Origin: a virus
Taxonomy: Duplodnaviria > Caudoviricetes
DNA: 25,937 bases
Strand: one strand, 5' to 3'
IMG/VR virus record: IMGVR_UViG_3300021197_001451
Coordinates: 1 to 25,937 of that record
Part shown: piece by piece, positions 1-25,937 of the stretch
Layout of the letters: every line of letters begins with the position of its first letter
Position numbering within the stretch: the first letter of the stretch is position 1
Program-made: the position numbers and the translations under genes
The notes under the pieces: model-generated
Seen by the model: the letters and a program-made list of their open reading frames with translations, nothing else
What the model was told of the DNA's origin: nothing
Database searches by the model: none

Positions 1-899
1 ACAACCAGTGTATCAAATAGCTTTCCTGATTCGGCGGCAGAAACACCAAGATTACTAAGGGCTGCTGCTTGTTCTATTAGCTTCCCTTTCATATCGTCCG
101 ATACAAGAGCGAACTGCCCAAAGCCATCGTTGAGTCCAGATAGTAATCTGGCTGTGGCTTCTGCGTCTAGTCCAAACTGATTTGTCGCAGCCACGTTGGC
201 ATATAACAATTGCTCGAAGTCTTGCAAGCCTGAGGACCTTATACCCTCTGCAAGTATACTTGACAACTTCATGGATGCGCCGATTAGTGCCGCCATTGCA
301 TCAAGCGCCAGATCAAGTGCAAATTCAAGGTAGTTTCCAGTGAGTACAGCCTCACCAAGACCCATGGCAAAGTCGGCAGCGCCCGAAACCATGCCGCCAA
401 TTTCTGAACCAAGTGAAGAAGCGATACCCTGAGCTTTATTGAAACCCCCTTGGACCTTATCCATTTTTTTCTTAAAGGCTTCTATTTCTTTTTTGCCTTG
501 TTCAAGTTCATGATTTTGTTTTCTGATCTCTTCTGTTACATCTTCGTGCTCTCGTCGGGTTTTGTCAAGTAAACTGGCTATGTCTCCATGCATATCTCTG
601 GCTACTCGGATACCTTCCAATTTATTTTGATATGATAATTCTTCGGCGGTACTTATCGTCAGACCCTGTTTCGCTAGTTCTCTTTTCTTCTCCTCAATTT
701 CAAAAGCCTCTTGTTGCAATAAGAGCGCCTCTTGCGCTGACGCTATGTCTGCGTCGTCAAGATTAGTAAGCAGTGCCTTCGCTGTCGCCATATCTTGCAT
801 GGCTTGCGCACTTTGTTTATTCTGCTCAAGTATTAGCTTATTTTGCTCTATCAGCTTTTCATTGCGAGCTAATTCTTCTTCTGTGGGGAACATAGCCAT
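1..899 (-). CDS. Tape measure protein, N-terminal part (runs off the left edge; not in ORF track)
   Basis: Manual translation from ATG at 899 (GAGGG SD upstream) gives MAMFPTEEELARNEKLIEQNKLILEQ... and stays open to base 1. It has an N-terminal coiled coil followed by Ala/Gly/Leu-rich helical segments (GGMVSGAADFAMGLGEAVL, AAALSNLGVSAAESGKLF). Its position downstream of tube and chaperone is canonical. Confidence 0.75.
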   Translation of the reverse strand, partial: MAMFPTEEELARNEKLIEQNKLILEQNKQSAQAMQDMATAKALLTNLDDADIASAQEALLLQQEAFEIEEKKRELAKQGLTISTAEELSYQNKLEGIRVARDMHGDIASLLDKTRREHEDVTEEIRKQNHELEQGKKEIEAFKKKMDKVQGGFNKAQGIASSLGSEIGGMVSGAADFAMGLGEAVLTGNYLEFALDLALDAMAALIGASMKLSSILAEGIRSSGLQDFEQLLYANVAATNQFGLDAEATARLLSGLNDGFGQFALVSDDMKGKLIEQAAALSNLGVSAAESGKLFDTLV

Positions 900-910
900 C
901 GACTAACCCT

Positions 911-1249
911 CTATCGCACTGGCCATTTCATGCCAGTCTCCTTCTCGAATAGTCTGATTGACTTCTCAAGTTTTGCACGGTTCTTAAATGTAAGTGGGCT
1001 GTCTAAGCCATACTTCTTTATGGCAGTCATGAAACGCTTCTCCGCAACCAAGGTATCTGTAAAGCGCATAACCTCAAGTCTGTTACCTCTCACTTTGACT
1101 GGGATCTTAGAGCCCATAAACATCTTCTCTAAAAGATATTGAACCCAAGCGGCAAATATACTAAGCACACTTTCATTTAAAGTTCCTCTTCTATTAGCGC
1201 CCAGATCCATCACTACTGTGGATAAATCTTTATCTTGATCTTCTTTCAT
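911..1249 (-). CDS. Hypothetical protein (112 aa) between tail chaperone and tape measure
   Basis: Clean ORF with GAGG SD and its own upstream CTATTTA motif; no recognised family. Confidence 0.8.
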   Translation of the reverse strand: MKEDQDKDLSTVVMDLGANRRGTLNESVLSIFAAWVQYLLEKMFMGSKIPVKVRGNRLEVMRFTDTLVAEKRFMTAIKKYGLDSPLTFKNRAKLEKSIRLFEKETGMKWPVR

Positions 1250-1265
1250 ATACAGAACCTCACTT

Positions 1266-1284
1266 CTATTTAGTAAATAGTTTG
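1266..1284 (-). promoter_or_regulatory. Putative late promoter motif (coding strand CAAACTATTTACTAA), here part of the palindrome CTATTTA-G-TAAATAG
   Basis: The 15-mer at 1270-1284 is identical to 8905-8919. It lies just after a terminator and about 25 nt before an ATG. Confidence 0.6.
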
Positions 1285-1290
1285 CGAAAG

Positions 1291-1320
1291 TAAAATAAAA
1301 GAGGGGCTTTAACCCCTCTT
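1291..1320 (-). terminator. Intrinsic terminator after the tail chaperone pair
   Basis: Minus strand AAGAGGGG-TTAAAG-CCCCTCTT followed by TTATTTTA; overlaps the stop codon at 1309. Confidence 0.75.
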
Positions 1321-1518
1321 CGATTTGCGCATTGCTGCCTTATGCGCCTCATTCTCTTTCTTTATTTCTTCCGCTAATCTCTCTAAAAACCACTTTCTCA
1401 ATCTAACTGGCAAGTTGTATGCTTCAGTAAAGCTCCACCCGCCATGGTACTTCATCAAGAAGAATTGCTCATAAATCTGTGTAGCGTGCTCAGGCGTCAG
1501 GCCAAAAGAACCCCGCAT
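1309..1518 (-). CDS. Small gp51-like tail/baseplate assembly protein, or the +1-frameshift extension of the upstream chaperone
   Basis: FGLTPEHATQIYEQFFLMKYHGGWSFTEAYNLPVRLRKWFLERL resembles the short proteins that follow gp26 in T4-like phages. It overlaps the upstream ORF in the +1 frame. The start is uncertain: ATG 1518, ATG 1455, or entry by frameshift. Confidence 0.65.
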   Translation of the reverse strand: MRGSFGLTPEHATQIYEQFFLMKYHGGWSFTEAYNLPVRLRKWFLERLAEEIKKENEAHKAAMRKSKRG

Positions 1519-2344
1519 TAAGCGGGACCTCCATCTCTGCGGAGTGACCGCAGTTGCCACAGTCAAAGTCTGTGCGTAGTTCCACGTTTGGAACAGCCTT
1601 GGTATAATTAATTCTTAGATGTCTCGCATCTCTTGCTGGCATGTTCTCAACAAAGTTATTGATCATAGCTCTATCTGAATTGCCATTAACTTTTACAACC
1701 ATTGTGCGAAGCATGGTCGTCAACTCATTGTTAGCCATACGATGCTTCTTCATCTGCTTTCTTCTCTGTGCATTAGCAGTCTCATCAGCGCCAGTCATCA
1801 AACGACAGCTTACTGTAGCTTTTGTCATTGGCAACTGGATATCGAAGGTGCCATCCTCATTCCAAACAACATCAGATGCATCAGGAGTCTTGACTGTCAT
1901 GATCTCGCTAACCATGTACTCTTCTTCTGAGTCTTCACTACAGGCTGGACAAGTAATCTTTACATTATATTCTTCTCCATAGCCCGTAACTCTCGCAGCT
2001 ATTAGAATAGCGTTTTTATCGCCGATTAGCAAAGCCTCTGATGTAATGCGCTTATCTACGATTACACTGTCTACTAAGCGATCTAGGACAATACCCTTGC
2101 GAATAAGTGCTTGTGAGGTGAGAATATCCTCTTCCTTAGCAGTCATGAATCGAATCTCTACTGCGTCTTGTCCGTGAAGTGGGTGACCTTCAGGATAATA
2201 CCTTCCACCAGATGGCAAATCCACAAACTCAGTTGGGTTTGACCAACTGAATTCTTGTGTCTGTGAAGTTGCTGCTGCTGGAGCAGGAGGCGTTGCGTCC
2301 TGCTCTACCTTAGGCGCACCAGTGCGACTATTATTGCGTGCCAT
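1490..2344 (-). CDS. T4 gp26-like baseplate hub assembly / tail assembly chaperone with two CxxC pairs
   Basis: Motifs VDLPSGGRYY, IRFMTAKEEDIL, LLIGDKNAILIAARVTGYG, CPAC and CGNC, with C-terminal FFWP; immediately downstream of the tail tube. Confidence 0.8.
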   Translation of the reverse strand: MARNNSRTGAPKVEQDATPPAPAAATSQTQEFSWSNPTEFVDLPSGGRYYPEGHPLHGQDAVEIRFMTAKEEDILTSQALIRKGIVLDRLVDSVIVDKRITSEALLIGDKNAILIAARVTGYGEEYNVKITCPACSEDSEEEYMVSEIMTVKTPDASDVVWNEDGTFDIQLPMTKATVSCRLMTGADETANAQRRKQMKKHRMANNELTTMLRTMVVKVNGNSDRAMINNFVENMPARDARHLRINYTKAVPNVELRTDFDCGNCGHSAEMEVPLNAGFFWPDA

Positions 2345-11918: not shown

Positions 11919-12323
11919 TTATGGAGTGTTGATACCTGATCCCGTGAGATTAAACATCATCGCTGGTTCAATACCTGTAAGTGATGATGCCATCTGGAAT
12001 CCTGTCTGACCGCCAGCCGCAAGAAAGTGTATTGCTTTGCACTTTACATCTAGACTGATAGAACCACTAGGTCCACCCTGCAATGCGCCAGCGCCATAGA
12101 TCTCAAGAAAAGTTCCAAAAGCTAAAGTTTCGGTCCCATGGGTATCGAAGGCTACTCGGACTGGATTGGCACCTGTCACGAATACTTGAATGTTTCTAGT
12201 CACCGAGGGGAAGTTTACTGTCAGCACGTCGCCCTGATTCATTAACGATCTGGTCAAGTGTGGTAACCCTGATACCTGATATGATCCTACATTACCTATG
12301 CCTGGTCTTCTTTGGTCAGCCAT
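11919..12323 (-). CDS. Hypothetical beta-rich protein, possibly a virion component
   Basis: Gly-rich, beta-strand-patterned 134 aa protein (GNVGSYQVSG...NLTGSG) within the head module; TAATG-coupled to bS21. Confidence 0.7.
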   Translation of the reverse strand: MADQRRPGIGNVGSYQVSGLPHLTRSLMNQGDVLTVNFPSVTRNIQVFVTGANPVRVAFDTHGTETLAFGTFLEIYGAGALQGGPSGSISLDVKCKAIHFLAAGGQTGFQMASSLTGIEPAMMFNLTGSGINTP

Positions 12324-12616
12324 TAGTTCTTCCTCCTGCGTCGTACTTCATAAGTATTCCCCTTGGGGTTAAAAAGCTCGTCTCTTTTGCGATTTATTTT
12401 TTCTACGATCCTTCTTTTGGCTCGTTTACGTTCGGCAGTCTTAACACTGTTAGGCGTGAATTGCTTACGGTCTCGAACCTCATCGATGATCCCTTCTTTA
12501 CGGACTTTCTTATTGAACTTCCGAACCATTGAATCAATACTCTTAACACCATGATCTGTTATAGATACTTCTATTCTTCCACTTATTTTACGTGGGCTTC
12601 TGCGTCGTTGTCTCAT
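12323..12616 (-). CDS. rpsU: Phage-encoded ribosomal protein bS21
   Basis: Highly basic. SIDSMVRKFNKKVRKEGIIDEVRDRKQFTPNSVKTAERKRAKRR matches the bS21 pattern (IExALRRFK+xxxKxGILxExRxRxxYxKPSxxR++KxxA). Confidence 0.85.
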   Translation of the reverse strand: MRQRRRSPRKISGRIEVSITDHGVKSIDSMVRKFNKKVRKEGIIDEVRDRKQFTPNSVKTAERKRAKRRIVEKINRKRDELFNPKGNTYEVRRRRKN

Positions 12617-20753: not shown

Positions 20754-21266
20754 TTAGACTACCTCGAAAGGTTCAGTGCGATAATCATATACCCACTCTG
20801 GGATCTTGTCAACTGGATAACGCAAGCGAGGCTTAGAAGCGTAGAACTTGCGATAAGATACTACTGGGTTGTCTGACCGAAACTCGTCAGGCATAGCTAG
20901 ACGGAGCGGTGTACACTCTAATGTTGGAAACAGTCCTGGGTCAAACATCTCAATGAGAGTCTGAAGAACTGATTGGCATTTGTGAGTTTTACTGAAGCGA
21001 TGTTCATACTCATCAATCATTGCCTGGCAGTGTAGAGCGAGGTTCATATAATTGCTTGCCGACTCAGCAGCCCACAGGCACGATGGGTGCTTGGGGTTAA
21101 ACGAACGGTAAGGAGCCTTGAGACCCTGCTCGTTGATGACTGTTGACATGATCTGACAAGACTCTAGGATCATCTTGACCACACGCAAGTTGTCTTGAGA
21201 CTGTGCTGACTTCTCCCAGTCAATCTCACCTGTTTCTTCATTGCCTTCAATAGCAAAAATATTCAT
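20754..21266 (-). CDS. Pyrimidine-dimer DNA glycosylase family (DenV/Pyr_excise-like) protein
   Basis: MNIF, VVKMILESCQIMST, HPSCLWAAESASNY, EYEHRFSKTHK and AMPDEFR...VVSYRKFY motifs. Start re-called to ATG 21266 (GGAG SD, ATGA overlap). Confidence 0.8.
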   Translation of the reverse strand: MNIFAIEGNEETGEIDWEKSAQSQDNLRVVKMILESCQIMSTVINEQGLKAPYRSFNPKHPSCLWAAESASNYMNLALHCQAMIDEYEHRFSKTHKCQSVLQTLIEMFDPGLFPTLECTPLRLAMPDEFRSDNPVVSYRKFYASKPRLRYPVDKIPEWVYDYRTEPFEVV

Positions 21267-21460
21267 AACGTCTCCACTAGTTTCAAGTCTTCTTGCCAAA
21301 CATATTCTTCAGTGTTACTGTCATTACACCACTGGACAAGAACCTGGACAGTACGCCAGGTGCGGTCGATCGACACAGACTTGACCAGCCCCAGGGTGGA
21401 GTTGGCAGGGTGGTCGAACTTTATGAGTTGCCCTGGCTTGAGCTTGGGTGTGATAGTCAT
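21263..21460 (-). CDS. Small SH3/KOW-like array protein (65 aa)
   Basis: KPGQLIKF...LGLVKS...VLVQW...LKLV; close paralog of 21460-21660. Confidence 0.8.
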   Translation of the reverse strand: MTITPKLKPGQLIKFDHPANSTLGLVKSVSIDRTWRTVQVLVQWCNDSNTEEYVWQEDLKLVETL

Positions 21461-21660
21461 TAGCTTTCTACCAATCTAAGTTTTGATTGTGGAACGTATT
21501 CTTCGACTTGTTCTTGCTCGCCACACCAGTGGACTAACACAAGTGCTGGTGCACCACGGCGTGGCGCTACGGAGGTTGACTTGACTAAGCCAAGCATAAT
21601 ACAATCACCGTTGACAAACTGAACAAGCTGACCTGGCTTGAACTTTGGCATGATAGCCAT
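21460..21660 (-). CDS. Small SH3/KOW-like array protein (66 aa)
   Basis: KPGQLVQF...LGLVKS...VLVHW...LRLV; GAGGAGG SD. Confidence 0.85.
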   Translation of the reverse strand: MAIMPKFKPGQLVQFVNGDCIMLGLVKSTSVAPRRGAPALVLVHWCGEQEQVEEYVPQSKLRLVES

Positions 21661-21679
21661 AAAACCTCCTCACACAATT

Positions 21680-21707
21680 AGTATACCACACTATTCTACA
21701 ATGTCAA
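21680..21707 (-). promoter_or_regulatory. Sigma70-type early promoter
   Basis: TTGACA-16 nt-TATACT with an extended -10 TG, followed by a GAGGAGG SD. Confidence 0.8.
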
Positions 21708-21708
21708 A

Positions 21709-21939
21709 TCAATTAGATACAACGTCCCAACAATTATGGGCATTGACTAAAAGCTCCTCAAATCGCTCACCAGTCGCACACCACTGCATCCTCACATAGC
21801 GGTGAGGGGGGTAGCCGTTAGTCGGCATTGGACCAGCATATGACTTTTCAAGAACCAGAGCTAGCTTCCCATCGTTAGAACCAAAACGGGCCCGCAGAAG
21901 AGTCCCAGGCTGTTGAACTTCCCACATCTTATCACGCAT
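21709..21939 (-). CDS. Small SH3/KOW-like array protein (76 aa)
   Basis: QPGTLLRA...LALVL...VRMQW...WDVVS. Confidence 0.75.
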   Translation of the reverse strand: MRDKMWEVQQPGTLLRARFGSNDGKLALVLEKSYAGPMPTNGYPPHRYVRMQWCATGERFEELLVNAHNCWDVVSN

Positions 21940-22168
21940 AACTAATCACGTCCCAGTTCAAAGGCATAAAAATACATCGGGTACCATTTGGGAATATAAC
22001 ATCATGTGTAATATATTTTCCATTGATGCTTGGTGCCAAAAGACCATACTCGCCGTTCTGGCGAATAGTAACATTATTCCGACAATGTTTTTTGACCCGA
22101 AGCAAGCTACCGATAGGAATGTTCTCAGGGTTCGATTTTAGTCGAGTATTGTAGGTTTCTTTTTTCAT
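21932..22168 (-). CDS. Small SH3/KOW-like array protein (78 aa)
   Basis: PIGSLLRV...YGLL...DVIFPNG...WDVIS. Confidence 0.75.
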   Translation of the reverse strand: MKKETYNTRLKSNPENIPIGSLLRVKKHCRNNVTIRQNGEYGLLAPSINGKYITHDVIFPNGTRCIFMPLNWDVISYA

Positions 22169-22356
22169 TACAACTCCACCAAATATCGAACTGGATATTG
22201 TCTGGAGACCGAGGAGCCGAACATTACATCGACAAACTCAAGCTCGTCTCCAAGATATTCGTCAAGGGCCCAGTAGTTTGAGCGAGTGATGATGCCGAGC
22301 ACTCGGTTGGAAGCAACTGCTACCAATTCTCCAACATTATATAATCTATGTTTCAT
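22168..22356 (-). CDS. Small SH3/KOW-like array protein (62 aa)
   Basis: NVGELVAV...LGII...VDVMF...YLVEL; TGATG overlap gives the likely start at 22356. Confidence 0.75.
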   Translation of the reverse strand: MKHRLYNVGELVAVASNRVLGIITRSNYWALDEYLGDELEFVDVMFGSSVSRQYPVRYLVEL

Positions 22357-22553
22357 CACCACATCCTCGTCGTTAGATTTCGTTCTTCAGCAAAAAAAGT
22401 GGTTCCATTGGGCTTCATCACTTTCCAATGGCTTTTGTTAAGTTTTTCCATTACAAGCAGTGGCGCTTTACGTTCTGCCAGATCAATAAACCACAACGTG
22501 GAATAAGGAGTGATCGCTGACTTCCTAACACGAACTAAATCACCTGGCTTCAC
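22356..22553 (-). CDS. Small SH3/KOW-like array protein (65 aa)
   Basis: MKPGDLVRV (GTG start, GGAGGTG SD). Confidence 0.8.
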   Translation of the reverse strand: MKPGDLVRVRKSAITPYSTLWFIDLAERKAPLLVMEKLNKSHWKVMKPNGTTFFAEERNLTTRMW

Positions 22554-22716
22554 TCAACACCTCCAACATCGTACAATTCTTGGGTACGAACTGGGGACCT
22601 AACTTTTCATTTGAGACCCACATATAATCTAACTTCTCATCATCGTGGCGAAGGACAATGCCAATGCCCAGCTTTACATTGTAAGCTGTGAACTGAACTA
22701 GTGTTCCGACCTTCAT
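22540..22716 (-). CDS. Small SH3/KOW-like array protein (58 aa; below ORF-track cutoff)
   Basis: Manual translation MKVGTLVQFTAYNVKLGIGIVLRHDDEKLDYMWVSNEKLGPQFVPKNCTMLEVLSEAR. Confidence 0.8.
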   Translation of the reverse strand: MKVGTLVQFTAYNVKLGIGIVLRHDDEKLDYMWVSNEKLGPQFVPKNCTMLEVLSEAR

Positions 22717-22877
22717 TATATCACTTCCAGTGAAGTAATAGGATGAGCAAAGCTACCATAGTCGTCAGACCACAAGACCTTGACAACTGCTCGGTCTACC
22801 CAGACTACAACTCCAAGTTGCTGTTTCTCCCAGCCCATCCATCCTTGTTGTCGTTTTACTAAATCACCTGGCTTCAT
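22716..22877 (-). CDS. Small SH3/KOW-like array protein (53 aa; below ORF-track cutoff)
   Basis: Manual translation MKPGDLVKRQQGWMGWEKQQLGVVVWVDRAVVKVLWSDDYGSFAHPITSLEVI. Confidence 0.8.
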   Translation of the reverse strand: MKPGDLVKRQQGWMGWEKQQLGVVVWVDRAVVKVLWSDDYGSFAHPITSLEVI

Positions 22878-23022
22878 TGATCAACTCCAACTCGCAGGTG
22901 TTCTGACCTCTGGTTTCCCCGTCGTCCCAGAGCACCTCTACAACATCCATGACACCCCAAGCGAGAACAATAATTCCCAATTGGTTATCCATAAGGTGCC
23001 GAACCAAATCACCTTGCTTCAC
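22864..23022 (-). CDS. Small SH3/KOW-like array protein (52 aa; below ORF-track cutoff)
   Basis: Manual translation (GTG start) MKQGDLVRHLMDNQLGIIVLAWGVMDVVEVLWDDGETRGQNTCELELINEAR. Confidence 0.8.
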   Translation of the reverse strand: MKQGDLVRHLMDNQLGIIVLAWGVMDVVEVLWDDGETRGQNTCELELINEAR

Positions 23023-23194
23023 TGACCACCTCTAAATCTTGTTCGAGAATGAGTAGATTCTCGCCAGTGTGGAGACGCTTAACAACCCAAAAGTATCCTT
23101 TGCTTTGACGCATAATCATACCCAACTCTTTGCGCATTTTCCAGTCAAAGTTGACTAGAGCACCGACACCGTGACCTGCTGATGATATCATCAT
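23009..23194 (-). CDS. Small SH3/KOW-like array protein (61 aa)
   Basis: GVGALVNF...LGMIM...WVVK...DLEVVSEAR. Confidence 0.75.
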   Translation of the reverse strand: MMISSAGHGVGALVNFDWKMRKELGMIMRQSKGYFWVVKRLHTGENLLILEQDLEVVSEAR

Positions 23195-23382
23195 TCCCCA
23201 CTATCTACTAGCCACACAATATTATGCGGGCTGTGTGCTCTTGGAACTTCTAAGTTATCCCACTTGATAACGAACTCGTGCATATCGCCACCAACAACTT
23301 TACCTTTTTGGTCTTGCAAAAGCGGGTGTTGACCTTTATATTTGACACGCTCGCCATGAAACATATTGAAATCACTCATCAC
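23191..23382 (-). CDS. Small SH3/KOW-like array protein (62-63 aa)
   Basis: HGERVKY...GKVV...VIKWD; AAGGAG SD from the promoter cassette. Confidence 0.75.
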   Translation of the reverse strand: MMSDFNMFHGERVKYKGQHPLLQDQKGKVVGGDMHEFVIKWDNLEVPRAHSPHNIVWLVDSGE

Positions 23383-23427
23383 TCTCTCCTTACAATTTAT
23401 AATACCATGGATAGAGTGTTTGTCAAG
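23383..23427 (-). promoter_or_regulatory. Sigma70-type promoter + RBS cassette, copy 1
   Basis: CTTGACA-AACACTCTATCCATGG-TATTAT-AAATTGT-AAGGAGAGA; 40/45 identical to 24447-24491. Confidence 0.85.
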
Positions 23428-23435
23428 AAAATATA

Positions 23436-23657
23436 TTATTTATTTGCAGAAGATAATAAAGTAATACGTGGCTCGGAAATCCAATATTGTTCATTTCCAA
23501 CTTGAATTTTATAAACGTTGTCTTTGGTTAGTCGATAACTCTGCTCAATAATTATTCCTATAACTTTTAGGAAATCTACATATTCTTCTGTTATACGATC
23601 TTTTTGGAATTCTACAAGATCACCAAGTTTGTAACGGTAATCAAATTTACGATCCAC
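23436..23657 (-). CDS. Small SH3/KOW-like array protein (73 aa)
   Basis: Start re-called to GTG 23657 (GGAG SD): MDRKFDYRYKLGDLVEF...IGIII...YKIQV...ITLLS. Confidence 0.75.
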   Translation of the reverse strand: MDRKFDYRYKLGDLVEFQKDRITEEYVDFLKVIGIIIEQSYRLTKDNVYKIQVGNEQYWISEPRITLLSSANK

Positions 23658-23841
23658 TGATAATCTCCAAATGATGAACAGAATAATATTCAGTATCGGG
23701 TGACTCAAGCCAGTCAACCAGCACACAGGTTGTGCCGTGGTTCTTCACTTCAGGATGAGACATAACAAGACCCATAGGGTTCCAGCCTCGGTTGGTTTCT
23801 GTGTCCCAGTCTGTGATTCTTACCAAGTCACCTGGCTTCAT
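23647..23841 (-). CDS. Small SH3/KOW-like array protein (64 aa)
   Basis: MKPGDLVRI...MGLVM...VLVDW...HLEIIS. Confidence 0.85.
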   Translation of the reverse strand: MKPGDLVRITDWDTETNRGWNPMGLVMSHPEVKNHGTTCVLVDWLESPDTEYYSVHHLEIISGS

Positions 23842-23992
23842 TGATCACCACCACATCATCTGGATAGAAGACTCTTTGCGGAGAGAAGGTATCCAGATGG
23901 AAATACCTCACCTCTCCTTTGATTTCTCGTACTGCTGATACGAGGTATAAATTTCCGTTGCGTCTGTATTTTACTAAATCACCGACTCGCAT
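23828..23992 (-). CDS. Small SH3/KOW-like array protein (54 aa; below ORF-track cutoff)
   Basis: Manual translation MRVGDLVKYRRNGNLYLVSAVREIKGEVRYFHLDTFSPQRVFYPDDVVVINEAR. Confidence 0.8.
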   Translation of the reverse strand: MRVGDLVKYRRNGNLYLVSAVREIKGEVRYFHLDTFSPQRVFYPDDVVVINEAR

Positions 23993-24188
23993 TGATCACC
24001 TCTTCTACTCGCCAGGAGCTACAACTGCCTGGTGTATTATCATCACAATAGATCATTTTGATGTGGGGGTAGGCTGGACCTGTTTCGGGGAACCGAAAGA
24101 ACACCTCGGTAAGGATAGCCATCCCGCCAGTCTTCATCATCACGAGGTCGCCGACCTTGAGTCCTTTGCGCCATTCGGTATCTTTCAC
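23979..24188 (-). CDS. Small SH3/KOW-like array protein (69 aa)
   Basis: LKVGDLVMMKTGG...IKMIY...VEEVINASR. Confidence 0.8.
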   Translation of the reverse strand: MKDTEWRKGLKVGDLVMMKTGGMAILTEVFFRFPETGPAYPHIKMIYCDDNTPGSCSSWRVEEVINASR

Positions 24189-24442
24189 CCTAGAACCTCC
24201 AGTTCAAAATCGGGGTCATCCCGAAAGCTGACCCAACGAACATGGAAGCCATGTGGTCCCTCATTCTCTTCCGACTCAAGCAGTAGGAATGGTCCTGGGG
24301 CTTTGGAGTTGAAGTGAACCTTTAAAGACTCACCAACAACACGCCACAGAGCGCCCTGTTCACGAACACGGTTTTTACCATGACGTGACTTACCTACAAG
24401 TTTAACTTTCTTCTTAAGCATACCCATACCATTTGATAACAC
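24185..24442 (-). CDS. Small hypothetical protein (85 aa), GKSRHGKNRV...RWV..DDPDFELEV type
   Basis: First gene after a promoter cassette; lacks the GDLV motif but ends in LEV like its neighbours. Confidence 0.75.
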   Translation of the reverse strand: MLSNGMGMLKKKVKLVGKSRHGKNRVREQGALWRVVGESLKVHFNSKAPGPFLLLESEENEGPHGFHVRWVSFRDDPDFELEVLG

Positions 24443-24446
24443 AACT

Positions 24447-24491
24447 TCTCTCCTTACATCTTATAATAGCACGGATAGAGTGTATGTCAAG
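24447..24491 (-). promoter_or_regulatory. Sigma70-type promoter + RBS cassette, copy 2
   Basis: CTTGACA-TACACTCTATCCGTGC-TATTAT-AAGATGT-AAGGAGAGA; its TTGACA also supplies the TGA stop of the upstream ORF. Confidence 0.85.
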
Positions 24492-24696
24492 TAAATTTCT
24501 TTTTTGTTTTTGCTCGCTGAACAAGCTGTACATCAGCGGCTCGAACTCGCACTAGGTCCCCATTAGGGTTTATTATTTCTGCGATCTTCATCAGCTTATC
24601 ATATTTTAAGAGCAGACCCATTTTCCAGTCAGTATACTTTTTAGGTTCGACATGCCAGGTACATACCCTGTACCTAATAAGATCACCGTCTCTCAA
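24487..24696 (-). CDS. Small SH3/KOW-like array protein (69 aa)
   Basis: MRDGDLIRY...MGLLL...AEII..NG...DVQLV; TTG start overlapping the upstream TGA. Confidence 0.75.
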   Translation of the reverse strand: MRDGDLIRYRVCTWHVEPKKYTDWKMGLLLKYDKLMKIAEIINPNGDLVRVRAADVQLVQRAKTKKKFT

Positions 24697-24902
24697 GAGC
24701 TAGACACCACTACTATATCTTTTTCGTGGACTTCGTAGATTCCCACTATCTGTTCACTTAGTTCCCAGTCGCTATCACACCACTTTATACTCCAGTATCC
24801 TGGTATACCGTATGGGCCCATCACAAGACCATAGGAGCCTGAGCCTTCTTTATTGAAAATATTGCTCTGCACTAAATCACCTGGCTTTACTTTATATTCC
24901 AT
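24693..24902 (-). CDS. Small SH3/KOW-like array protein (69 aa)
   Basis: VKPGDLVQ...YGLVM...WSIKW...DIVVVS. Confidence 0.8.
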   Translation of the reverse strand: MEYKVKPGDLVQSNIFNKEGSGSYGLVMGPYGIPGYWSIKWCDSDWELSEQIVGIYEVHEKDIVVVSSS

Positions 24903-24927: not shown

Positions 24928-25937
24928 TTATTCTTCTATCTGACACTGAAAGCGCAAATCAACTCCTCGTAGAATTGGTGTGGCTTCTCGATCGGTAGAC
25001 ACTAAAAAGATTTCTATTTCTGCAAAACGGTGAGGAGGAAGAGCGTTCAAGTCTGCTGGCAATTCGTTTTGCCCATCAGCCGAACTTACCCAGGGACCAA
25101 AGACAGCGAGTGCTGGGTCAGCCAATTCATCTCTGGTCTCTGCTACCTTGATTCTGAATTCTACTCTGGTGTCTGGTGGTAAAGTTGTAGAAGCGTCTAG
25201 AGTCATCCAGTCGGTGTCAAGCTTCTCACATCCCTCAACAATCATTTTATATCCGCCACGAGGAGCCGTGAAGTTTCTTAATCCAAAACCTGTGAAGTCT
25301 GAATAGGTGTAAGGTCCTGAGCCGACTGTCACACGCCGCACATCGTTTGGATTATTGGGATCGATCCGACCCGTGTATCCGCCCGAGGCAACGCCCCAGA
25401 TGAAGCCATTGAAATCTACGCCAGCACCTGTTGTGCCGCCGCCGATGCTGAACTGACCGATGAGTTGCATCGTGTTAACTCTGTAGCCAATCATTCCTGT
25501 TGTGTTGTCGGCAAACCAGATACGCCCTTCAGCGTCAGCGCCTGCTCCTCGCATATAGCAGCGATTAACACCGCAAGATGAATGACGCCAAGCACCACCG
25601 CCAGCCAGTGGATCTTGGATAGGATTACCATTAGCATCACGATAGGGGTCATAGCGATTGACGCCACTATTTTGAGCGCCAACCCAGAGCCTGTTCTCTC
25701 CGTCCATCGTGAAGCCATAAGAACGGGCTGGAACTCCTTGGGGTCGGATTACACCTGATGCTCTGCCAGTTCGGGAGTCAAAACCAGCGATGGTGCCGCC
25801 GCTCAATGTCCCTGACCAAACATAGCCGTTAGAATCTACGACCGCACCATAAGGTGAGTGCCCAATGCTGATTGGGTTTTGAAGACCTGGGCGTCTGATA
25901 AGTGTGCCGTCAGTTCCCTGGATGCCGTAAAATTCTC
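24928..25937 (-). CDS. Beta-propeller (Vgb/NHL-like repeat) protein with C-terminal beta-sandwich-like domain; 5' end outside window
   Basis: The frame is open to the window edge. Repeats PYGAVVDSNGYVW, SYGFTMDGENRLWVG, MRGAGADAEGRIWFA and TTGAGVDFNGFIWGV are followed by GPYTYSDFTG and a C-terminal domain. Confidence 0.75.
   Translation of the reverse strand, partial: EFYGIQGTDGTLIRRPGLQNPISIGHSPYGAVVDSNGYVWSGTLSGGTIAGFDSRTGRASGVIRPQGVPARSYGFTMDGENRLWVGAQNSGVNRYDPYRDANGNPIQDPLAGGGAWRHSSCGVNRCYMRGAGADAEGRIWFADNTTGMIGYRVNTMQLIGQFSIGGGTTGAGVDFNGFIWGVASGGYTGRIDPNNPNDVRRVTVGSGPYTYSDFTGFGLRNFTAPRGGYKMIVEGCEKLDTDWMTLDASTTLPPDTRVEFRIKVAETRDELADPALAVFGPWVSSADGQNELPADLNALPPHRFAEIEIFLVSTDREATPILRGVDLRFQCQIEE

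Follow-up and report, generated by a model that had tools for sequence, protein, structure and literature searches.

The locus analysed here raises the question of what a long row of very small genes encodes in an uncultured, marine, T4-like phage, and how such a row is kept and rearranged. The window (the whole stretch of 25,937 nt that was analysed, from IMG/VR record IMGVR_UViG_3300021197_001451) carries the array on the minus strand of the contig. An earlier note had listed 18 consecutive minus-strand ORFs of 52–85 aa, and all of them could be located at the coordinates given in Table 1, including the four shorter than 60 aa (o05, o10, o11 and o12). Start codons were picked by script, and the likeliest start of o07 was the GTG at 23657. 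Neighbouring genes overlap at 14 of the 17 junctions, and the remaining three are gaps of 44, 56 and 48 nt. The pyrimidine-dimer DNA glycosylase-like gene downstream of the array served as the synteny anchor. The array is very probably a chain of small genes, the product of each being a predicted SH3-type barrel.

Table 1. Features of the array and its flanks in the window ("barrel" denotes a predicted SH3-type barrel; loci are those of close relatives).
Feature	Coordinates	Strand	Description
Upstream flank	24928..25937	-	3' part of Cys-rich beta-propeller lipoprotein-like gene; host marker
o01	24693..24902	-	69 aa barrel mini-gene, 5' of first promoter; orthologue in 1/14 loci
o02	24487..24696	-	69 aa barrel mini-gene, 5' of first promoter; 2/14 loci
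Promoter P1	24463..24490	-	sigma70 type, extended -10, 11/12 consensus; then AAGGAGAG ribosome site
o03	24185..24442	-	80-85 aa, sequence divergent, weak by HMM, predicted SH3-like barrel; 8/14 loci
o04	23979..24188	-	69 aa barrel mini-gene; HMM-supported; 11/14 loci
Joint o04/o05	23969..24002	-	14-nt overlap, repeat family D1
o05	23828..23992	-	54 aa barrel mini-gene; place differs among relatives; 9/14 loci
Joint o05/o06	23818..23851	-	14-nt overlap, repeat family D1
o06	23647..23841	-	64 aa, predicted SH3-like barrel; 12/14 loci
o07	23436..23657	-	73 aa barrel mini-gene, GTG start; 9/14 loci
Promoter P2	23399..23426	-	sigma70 type, extended -10
o08	23191..23382	-	62-63 aa, probable divergent member; weak by HMM; 4/14 loci
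o09	23009..23194	-	61 aa barrel mini-gene; 7/14 loci
Joint o09/o10	22999..23032	-	14-nt overlap; extra o18-like gene inserted here in L005
o10	22864..23022	-	52 aa barrel mini-gene, mobile among relatives; 8/14 loci
Joint o10/o11	22854..22887	-	14-nt overlap, D1 reference copy
o11	22716..22877	-	53 aa barrel mini-gene, mobile among relatives; 7/14 loci
o12	22540..22716	-	58 aa barrel mini-gene; 8/14 loci
Joint o12/o13	22530..22563	-	14-nt overlap, repeat family D1
o13	22356..22553	-	65 aa barrel mini-gene; 14/14 loci
o14	22168..22362	-	62-64 aa barrel mini-gene; 0/300 shuffles on distant profile; 11/14 loci
o15	21932..22168	-	78 aa, probable divergent member; weak by HMM (3/300 shuffles); 14/14 loci
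o16	21709..21939	-	76 aa barrel mini-gene; 14/14 loci
Promoter P3	21680..21707	-	sigma70 type, extended -10
o17	21460..21660	-	66 aa barrel mini-gene, o18 paralogue (48% identical); group in 13/14 loci
o18	21263..21460	-	65 aa barrel mini-gene; HMM-supported
Downstream flank	20754..21263	-	pyrimidine-dimer DNA glycosylase-like gene; PF03013 E 6e-5, phrog_624

With leave-one-out HMMs, 14 of the 18 ORFs outscored 200/200 shuffles as well as 176/176 of the other ORFs in the window; o03, o08, o14 and o15 were weak. HMMs built from one half of the set, the check named in the earlier note, recovered 7/9 of the other half in each direction, again 14/18. A profile of 128 members from 8 loci of distant phages, which matched none of the window ORFs by BLAST at E<1e-6 and had originally been located by a profile seeded on those ORFs, placed 15 of the 18 above 300/300 shuffles, o14 now included; the shuffle counts for o03 and o08 were 5/300 and 19/300, and o15 also fell short. 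Three orthologues of o08 scored 7.9–10.6 bits against this profile, and those of o15 1.2–10.2 bits. The skeleton ascribed earlier to 17 of the ORFs is shared by most of them, but the one ORF then left out, o03, is also SH3-like by prediction. The cross-recovery, together with multi-copy matches in relatives, bears out a paralogous expansion.

AlphaFold models, available for two of the 18 proteins, predicted five strands in antiparallel order, the last of them preceded by a short helical turn. The o06 model (pLDDT 89) aligned with the archaeal Spt5 KOW domain at a VIA Z of 7.9 (rmsd 1.8, 54 aligned residues), and the o03 model (pLDDT 77) aligned with NdhS and Spt5 KOW at a Z of 6.4 (rmsd 1.8–2.5). 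The neighbours of o06 listed by Foldseek and VIA were small SH3-type barrels, for example KOW, PWWP, Tudor, PsaE, NdhS, YorP and R67 DHFR, those of o03 were of a like kind, and the top PDB sequence matches of the family profile were PWWP (E 6e-4), MIB (9e-4), a designed SH3 (4e-3) and Spt5 KOW (8e-3). These fold matches are middling: Foldseek gave no match against the PDB at E≤0.001, and the VIA list fell from Z 7.9 to 5.8 across 50 rows with no match standing out. The single SH3/KOW/Tudor-type scaffold proposed before is upheld by the models, neighbours and profile matches. None of the families in Pfam, PHROG, NCBIfam and PADLOC covers the array proteins. Curated KOW models matched none of 140 members at E≤0.05, the match of o11 to KOWx_SPT5 being sub-threshold (E 0.077, 13 bits vs a cut-off of 20), and four single-member matches to PADLOC defence models (E 0.007–0.01) among the 140 were at chance level. 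An SH3-like fold alone shows no function; the available text of PMC12487901 describes small SH3/Tudor barrels as more common than any other phage-specific structural cluster.

A TTGACA-16-TGnTAnnAT site with 11/12 consensus was found in each of the three array gaps. These were three of the four best among 25 matches, with shuffles giving 8.9 ± 3.5, and the P1 and P2 regions share a 63-nt repeat (84% identical). The promoters claimed to stand ahead of the array are present as sigma70-type sites but cover 16 of the 18 genes only, because o01 and o02 lie 5' of the first promoter (24490-24463). RNA-library contigs were uninformative on array transcription, because they matched array and late genes equally.

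Among near-complete relatives (179–206 kb), 7/7 carried 14–25 family matches, and one 81%-complete relative had 2 only; copies per genome ranged from 14 to 36. In metagenomes there were 6757 representatives at E≤0.001, unrelated SH3-repeat proteins among them. The best capsid identity to the collection searched was 49–54%, and no cultured member of the phage group was present there. Among 14 relatives the o13–o18 block was nearly constant, and the 5' two thirds of the array varied freely in order and content. In relative G001, family copies also stand alone outside the array, and similar domains were seen as tandem repeats inside single proteins.

Many of the genes overlap by 14 nt and meet in a joint about 35 nt long, which holds the ribosome site, the start codon, the stop of the upstream gene and the first strand. 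The GGAGGT ribosome site doubles as the Glu-Val codons of the last strand, and the upstream stop lies within the Gly-Asp codons. The earlier note had overlooked this overlapping joint, where whole genes are exchanged. The 14-nt overlap accounted for 78/189 short overlaps among family genes vs 2/60 outside the array in G001 (p 1e-9). In pairwise comparisons, which are not mutually independent, the neighbour was retained in 143/430 at the 14-nt joint (33%), 715/1129 at other overlaps (63%) and 90/300 at promoter gaps (30%); counted as distinct neighbour pairs, the values were 35/62 vs 45/125 (p 0.012). Where only the upstream gene was in common, similarity held to +24 and then dropped to background; where only the downstream gene was in common, it started at -12. 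Such a switch of DNA identity inside the joint fits homologous recombination, and whole genes are probably gained, lost and reordered by recombination at the shared joint.

Breakpoints near gene ends would also be expected if selection retained only whole-gene swaps, and the joint could be a passive by-product of compact packing, in which GGT-GA for Gly-Asp gives a stop 14 nt in and whole-gene swaps survive from other routes of rearrangement. By construction the stop falls in the conserved Gly-Asp codons, where Gly is most often GGT even without stop use (66/148), and promoter gaps swap neighbours equally often. However, other overlaps between family genes retain neighbours about twice as often as the joint, similarity to the upstream partner reaches ten bases beyond the stop, and in locus L005 the o18-like gene inserted within the o09/o10 joint opens with the codons of the resident joint. 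We consider a passive joint fairly improbable.

Identity between paralogue groups was 32% in strands and 9% in loops, and inside orthologue groups 70% and 51%. The dN/dS was 0.06–0.45 across all 19 orthologue groups (1049 pairs). By region, loops gave 0.21 over all pairs and 0.25 in 156 unsaturated pairs, and strands 0.18–0.22 (0.22 in the unsaturated pairs), values that are region-wide rather than single-site; most pairs have synonymous sites close to saturation. The fast diversification implied by the earlier term hypervariable loops is contradicted by these loop values and by the conservation of loops within groups. A diversifying binder library is likewise unsupported at the level of whole loops, their dN/dS inside orthologue groups lying far under 1. 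The array is made up of fixed specialists, kept by purifying selection (dN/dS about 0.2), with turnover in membership and order, and the paralogues are ancient and distinct rather than recently copied.

Two markers bear on the host, with labels drawn from MAG records in which misbinned phage DNA is possible: the organism-labelled matches were of Myxococcota type in 6/6 cases among 34 matches for the upstream lipoprotein-like gene and in 4/4 cases among the 120 matches listed for a ferredoxin of G001. A GTDB scan of this ferredoxin was less clear-cut: a 'Pseudomonadota' MAG and a Myxococcales MAG shared first place (69%), followed by an actinobacterium (65%). We infer a marine Myxococcota bacterium as the host.

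The reading we prefer is a chain of barrel genes shuffled by homologous recombination at the joint, in which each gene encodes an early binder of its own conserved host target, for takeover or anti-defence; the chance of this whole is close to even. Host-takeover or anti-defence binding by the array proteins is itself a tentative assignment, a little under an even chance. Host RNA polymerase would transcribe the array early from the three sigma70-type promoters, and translation would be coupled from gene to gene through overlapping stop/start sites. Group-specific loops on the shared barrel strands would set the target, itself conserved, and crossovers between joints would add, remove or relocate entire genes, with frame, ribosome site and coupling left intact.

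Other functions can be weighed against the same data. Spt5/NusG KOW domains and ribosomal proteins are among the highest-ranking structural neighbours, as would suit KOW, LSm or ProQ-Tudor-like modulators that bind RNA or act on transcription elongation and tune the stability, termination or translation of the phage's own mRNA. However, net charge shows no basic bias (median 0, 5–95% range -7 to +7), the Pfam KOW model is unmatched by the 140 members at E≤0.05, and self-regulation poorly explains 14–36 copies turning over among close relatives; we regard such modulators as unlikely. Subunits of one mixed oligomer (an Sm/Hfq-like ring) or minor virion parts, held at a fixed ratio by translational coupling, would agree with the tight coupling of neighbours, the near-constant o13–o18 block and the tandem domains, but not with the freedom of the 5' two thirds, the lone copies in G001 or the position of the genes behind sigma70-type promoters away from the structural module, and are highly improbable. 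The array might also be nearly neutral, the joint easing duplication so that cassettes spread and the proteins do little. Members are freely lost (o01, o02 and o08, the rarest, occur in 1, 2 and 4 of 14 loci) and the 81%-complete relative holds few, yet all 19 groups show dN/dS well under 1, in loops too, which largely refutes this reading, and the paralogues are old and distinct; we find it extremely improbable.

The host-takeover cluster of Bacillus phage SPO1 resembles the array in its many small genes with strong host-type promoters and strong ribosome sites; unlike those of the array, its genes are not known to be related to one another or to have a dual-coding joint. A literature search found no paper on the array, and the closest published mechanism was the shuffling by promoter-early stem-loops (PeSLs), promoter-terminator cassettes that lie between genes and exchange unrelated ones in modular fashion within hyperplastic regions of T4-type phages (PMC2839356, PMC4122927). 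As far as the available text of those papers goes, the likeness lies in T4-like phages in which strong sigma70-like promoters precede a region of small, non-core genes and in indels or replacements at a short repeat credited to homologous recombination; gene neighbours in the array change at the promoter repeats too (30% retained). In contrast, the main repeat of the array sits in two coding sequences at once, its cargo is one fold family, and a simple scan placed none of 9 terminator-like matches at P1, P2 or P3.

Among small barrels, the KOW of NusG/Spt5, PWWP, Tudor, PsaE, NdhS, R67 DHFR and Bacillus YorP share with the modelled proteins a predicted five-strand barrel whose last strand follows a short helical turn, and a Gly-Asp-x-Val strand at the N terminus, but the array proteins stand alone and have no curated family match. 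The predicted LSm-like early proteins GoF and MotB.1 as well as Frd.2 of T4, described in the available part of PMC12152347 as dispensable in the laboratory and of unclear function, are early phage proteins that likewise diverge in sequence and share one predicted small beta-barrel; they are three genes with extra C-terminal parts vs 14–36 coupled single-domain genes, and PHROG and Pfam searches gave no link. CarS of Myxococcus xanthus, an antirepressor of SH3 topology that sequesters a regulator (PMC2926617, available part), shows that such a small protein can neutralise a regulator in the phylum of the inferred host. CarS is cellular and single-copy with an acidic pocket, whereas the array family is not generally acidic: its net charge is centred on 0, so no common acidic DNA-mimic signature is present, single acidic members being possible. 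The CarS Pfam model matched none of the 140 members at E≤0.05.

A bolder proposal, which we hold to be somewhat unlikely, is a promoterless, recombinase-free cassette system with the recombination site written into the fold (last strand, ribosome site, start, first strand), through which a clade of marine Myxococcota phages would trade SH3 binders of one domain from a pool numbering thousands, every binder acting against a host defence or regulator of its own. Early phage genes are mostly unexplained, and anti-defence proteins are usually discovered singly. One scaffold with 14–36 separately selected variants per genome is a defined library for host-target screens, and the array would show in nature how loops can encode specificity on a 60-residue barrel. 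From the host markers, Myxococcus xanthus would be a tractable test host for the phage group. The dual-coding joint would allow simple gene shuffling without breaking frame or translation, and would carry the PeSL idea over from intergenic repeats to repeats in coding sequence.

The array was tiled by 18 minus-strand ORFs of 52–85 aa (o01–o18, numbered from the upstream end), and overlaps could be observed at 14 of its 17 joints, five of them being 14 nt long. Each of the three intergenic gaps contained one sigma70-type promoter (P1–P3) with an 11/12 match to the consensus and a TG before the -10 box. P1 and P2 had 63 nt in common with 84% identity, and o01 and o02 were located upstream of P1. 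The same promoter type was found again in relatives. The related locus L037 is a cleaner example of the array than the window, as its family genes were mostly linked by the 14-nt overlap and near-consensus extended -10 promoters separated the gene blocks. More divergent candidate members (orthologue groups k8, k17, and k21) also occurred within the arrays of relatives. In three near-complete relatives the array lay at or across contig ends, which may reflect assemblies broken at joint repeats or a terminal place in the virion DNA. In two RNA-library runs, short contigs covered the array and late genes alike; contigs cannot reveal transcription. In the near-complete relative G001, one of the two larger genes behind the array-type promoter probably encodes an AAA ATPase, and the other its partner, which resembles a metallopeptidase.

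Coordinates of the features in the window and in related loci (L) and near-complete relative genomes (G)
Sequence	Position	Strand	Feature
Window	12323–12616	-	Ribosomal protein S21-like gene (phrog_21469, E 4e-4)
Window	20754–21263	-	Pyrimidine-dimer DNA glycosylase-like gene (PF03013), next gene downstream of the array
Window	20784–20812	-	Fourth 11/12 sigma70-type site, at the glycosylase-like gene end, pointing into small membrane-protein and terminase genes
Window	21263–24902	-	Array, o01–o18
Window	21680–21707	-	P3
Window	23399–23426	-	P2
Window	24463–24490	-	P1
Window	24928–25937	-	Propeller gene, upstream of the array
L005	573–2618		Propeller gene, full length (~680 aa)
L037	6978–15391		~33 family genes in 8.4 kb
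L001	7828–8046		Non-family small genes (k15, k25) immediately behind promoters
L003	7938–8093		As L001
L008	9431–9595		As L001
G003	174050–185927; 54–1625		Array at or across contig ends
G312	181009–184686; 102–1511		Array at or across contig ends
G310	192172–200477		Array at or across contig ends
G001	86956–91195; 102653–104085		Array promoter type ahead of two larger genes; more single family members
G001	95847–100294; 120295–140796; 185457–185891		Host-like stretches

Pairwise similarity among the 18 ORFs was low, and E<1e-4 was reached only by o17/o18 (48%), o10/o11, and o06/o18. The proposal of the earlier note that 17 of the ORFs share one scaffold was supported by a half-against-half profile test, in which 7/9 were recovered each way. 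With leave-one-out profiles, 14 of the 18 outscored every one of 200 shuffles and of the 176 other ORFs in the window, and a profile of 128 members from eight distant loci placed 15/18 above all 300 shuffles. On the latter profile o03, o08, and o15 were still weak, and orthologues of o08 and o15 attained approximately 10 bits. Profile-profile comparison of the o03 orthologues with the family gave a probability of 1%, so o03 is placed in the family by its structure model. None of the 18 reached the Pfam cut-off or PHROG E<0.01, and 140 family members compared with Pfam, PADLOC, and NCBIfam produced scattered single matches and no family assignment.

The family profile found its best matches among PDB sequences in PWWP, MIB, designed SH3, and KOW domains. 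The model of o06, built from an alignment of 140 rows (pLDDT 89), revealed barrel strands and a short helix preceding the last strand. Its Foldseek matches had a probability near 1, yet E above 0.03, while VIA gave Z 7.9 and rmsd 1.8 over 54 residues to an archaeal Spt5 KOW, with many SH3-type barrels close after. The o03 model (five strands, pLDDT 77) had NdhS, KOW, eL21, and Tudor barrels as neighbours (Z up to 6.4). The top match in a viral structure library had TM 0.85, and many matches were unnamed proteins with runs of adjacent accession numbers. In the ESM Atlas, o06 matched unnamed viral clusters (0.93–0.94), and o03 received scores under 0.9 only. The predicted fold class, a small SH3-type barrel, is well supported, and no one known family emerges above the others. 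SH3/Tudor folds are described as the largest phage-specific structural clusters (PMC12487901); therefore the array fold alone is ordinary. The available text of a jumbo-phage survey (PMC7824862) describes a single small protein of SH3 type, located next to a polymerase.

Orthologues of the window genes were present in 1–14 of 14 close loci. The dN/dS ratio was 0.06–0.45 in all 19 orthologue groups tested (1049 pairs), with overlap codons excluded, the small groups k15, k19, and k21–k53 outside the set, and pairs taken without an amino-acid identity filter, which biases the ratio down. The glycosylase-like neighbour had a ratio of 0.06. In 156 pairs with pS under 0.45, strands had 0.22 and loops 0.25. 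Across 165 sequences in 16 groups, strand identity was 70% within groups and 32% between them, and loop identity was 51% and 9%, respectively. The low ratios, together with the identity within groups, indicate that the array genes are real and maintained, and a neutral expansion was rejected on the same ratios. The loops are signatures of their groups rather than rapidly changing segments, and it is chiefly here that the first reading, which had described them as hypervariable, needs correcting.

A 34-nt repeat with 65–100% identity was present at six gene starts in the window. The consensus of 80 distinct 14-nt overlaps spanned -12 to about +20 and consisted of T-GGAG-GT-x-x-T-x-A, the start codon, AA-x, three variable bases, and GGTGA-T-x-T-x-GT, which reads Leu-Glu-Val-x-Asn/Ser-Glu-x-Arg-stop in the upstream frame and Met-Lys-x-Gly-Asp-Leu-Val in the downstream frame. 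Such overlaps made up 78 of the 189 overlaps of ≤30 nt between family genes, a count that leaves out longer apparent overlaps (probably start-call errors). In the rest of G001, away from the array, they made up 2 of 60.

Whole genes are probably exchanged by homologous recombination between these joints. Across 15 close arrays, the neighbour was retained in 33% of comparisons at 14-nt joints, 63% at other overlaps, and 30% at promoter gaps, these comparisons not being independent; a distinct-pair test of the first two gave p 0.012. Coding in two frames forces part of the conservation of the joint, and some of the recombination signal could be mimicked if only whole-gene swaps survive. BLAST segments between relatives were often bounded by joints at both ends, as for o10 against L003 and o11 against L001, and identity profiles switched between -12 and +24. 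In the related locus L005, an o18-like gene lay in the o09/o10 joint; it matched the window exactly as far as +20 and resembled o18 thereafter, so that the insert begins with the codons of the resident joint. A DNA-run contig joint (22878–23969) fits the o04-to-o11 order of L001 and L003, but with 25 letters on its short side this match is too weak to serve as evidence. The array itself is real. The closest published mechanism to exchange between joints, as far as the sources describe it, is PeSL shuffling (PMC2839356, PMC4122927), from which the array differs in that its repeat lies within two coding frames and its cargo comes from one fold family.

The window is, from its gene content, part of a large T4-like myophage. 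The major head protein, portal, terminase, sheath, tube, head protease, and ribosomal S21 genes all had PHROG matches, and complete relatives were 179–206 kb. The top capsid matches among GenBank phages were an uncultured phage (54%) and Microcystis phage Mel-JY01 and Flavobacterium immuto phages (48–49%). The S21-like gene is flanked by the genes for the head protease and the major capsid protein, and in Mel-JY01 it is likewise directly upstream of the capsid gene, a layout reminiscent of the bS21 phages as described (PMC9723584). The array-bearing sequencing runs were seawater, marine, or aquatic viral metagenomes.

Among 80 loci around the glycosylase-like gene, 38 had at least one match and 24 had 7–36, all on the anchor's strand, although several loci stop near the anchor and an occasional overlapping frame may be counted. 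Distant relatives, too, had family genes next to the glycosylase homologue; in some these lay upstream of it, and in others on both its flanks. When whole records were scanned, the three near-complete genomes contributing to the profile had 17, 14, and 25 matches (E≤0.01), four outside it had 15, 22, 16, and 16 (E≤0.001), and an 81%-complete record had only 2. In G001, approximately 27 ORFs exceeded 10 bits, of which 16 were in the array and several more lay close to a promoter of the array type. The profile matched 6757 representatives at E≤0.001, which is an upper bound because the 56 long or multi-match representatives scanned, of 150 listed, were mostly tandem repeats of similar barrels, and two were Mind-bomb-like. 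Eight proteins (P0040, P0043, P0047, P0050, P0070, P0071, P0078, and P0159) had 2–5 similar barrels in tandem, P0047, P0070, and P0071 each resembling a pair of array units within a single reading frame.

No match to o11 was obtained by tblastn against 50,697 GenBank phage records, and the array was absent from the five nearest GenBank capsid relatives (0, 0, 1, 0, and 1 weak family matches). The putative host phylum, to which a Myxococcales MAG belongs, was sampled with 301 genomes; one had a match, on a 1.8-kb contig, and 300 were without the array; none of four candidate host MAGs had a match. The array thus does not appear as a cellular feature among the cellular genomes searched. In the open-access literature, supplements excluded, no description of the array or the joint was found.

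The host is likely a member of Myxococcota, as suggested by gene homology. The propeller gene had 34 long homologues, and all six with organism labels were Myxococcota or Myxococcales (identity up to 72%). For the G001 ferredoxin, the four labelled among 120 matches listed were Myxococcales, Myxococcota, Polyangia, and Bradymonadia; a GTDB scan gave a mixed picture, with one MAG labelled 'Pseudomonadota' and one from Myxococcales tied at 69%. This 4Fe-4S ferredoxin is one of the host-like genes of G001, which presumably also include a cluster of three genes similar to YeaH/SpoVR/PrkA and a long cluster for sugar modification. The propeller protein is a Cys-rich beta-propeller with a lipoprotein-like N-terminus, and many of its homologues have PF11617; it is possibly a host surface protein acquired by the phage.

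Precedents for small barrels include CarS, an SH3 barrel able to sequester a regulator in myxobacteria (PMC2926617), and the T4 GoF family of divergent early barrel paralogues, linked to RNA stability (PMC12152347). Compared to CarS, the array family is without shared acidic character, and a DNA-mimic reading was rejected on this ground. The array proteins would fit a role in binding host proteins, for instance for takeover or anti-defence, because of the host-type promoters, the non-core position, the many separately selected variants, and the turnover between close relatives.
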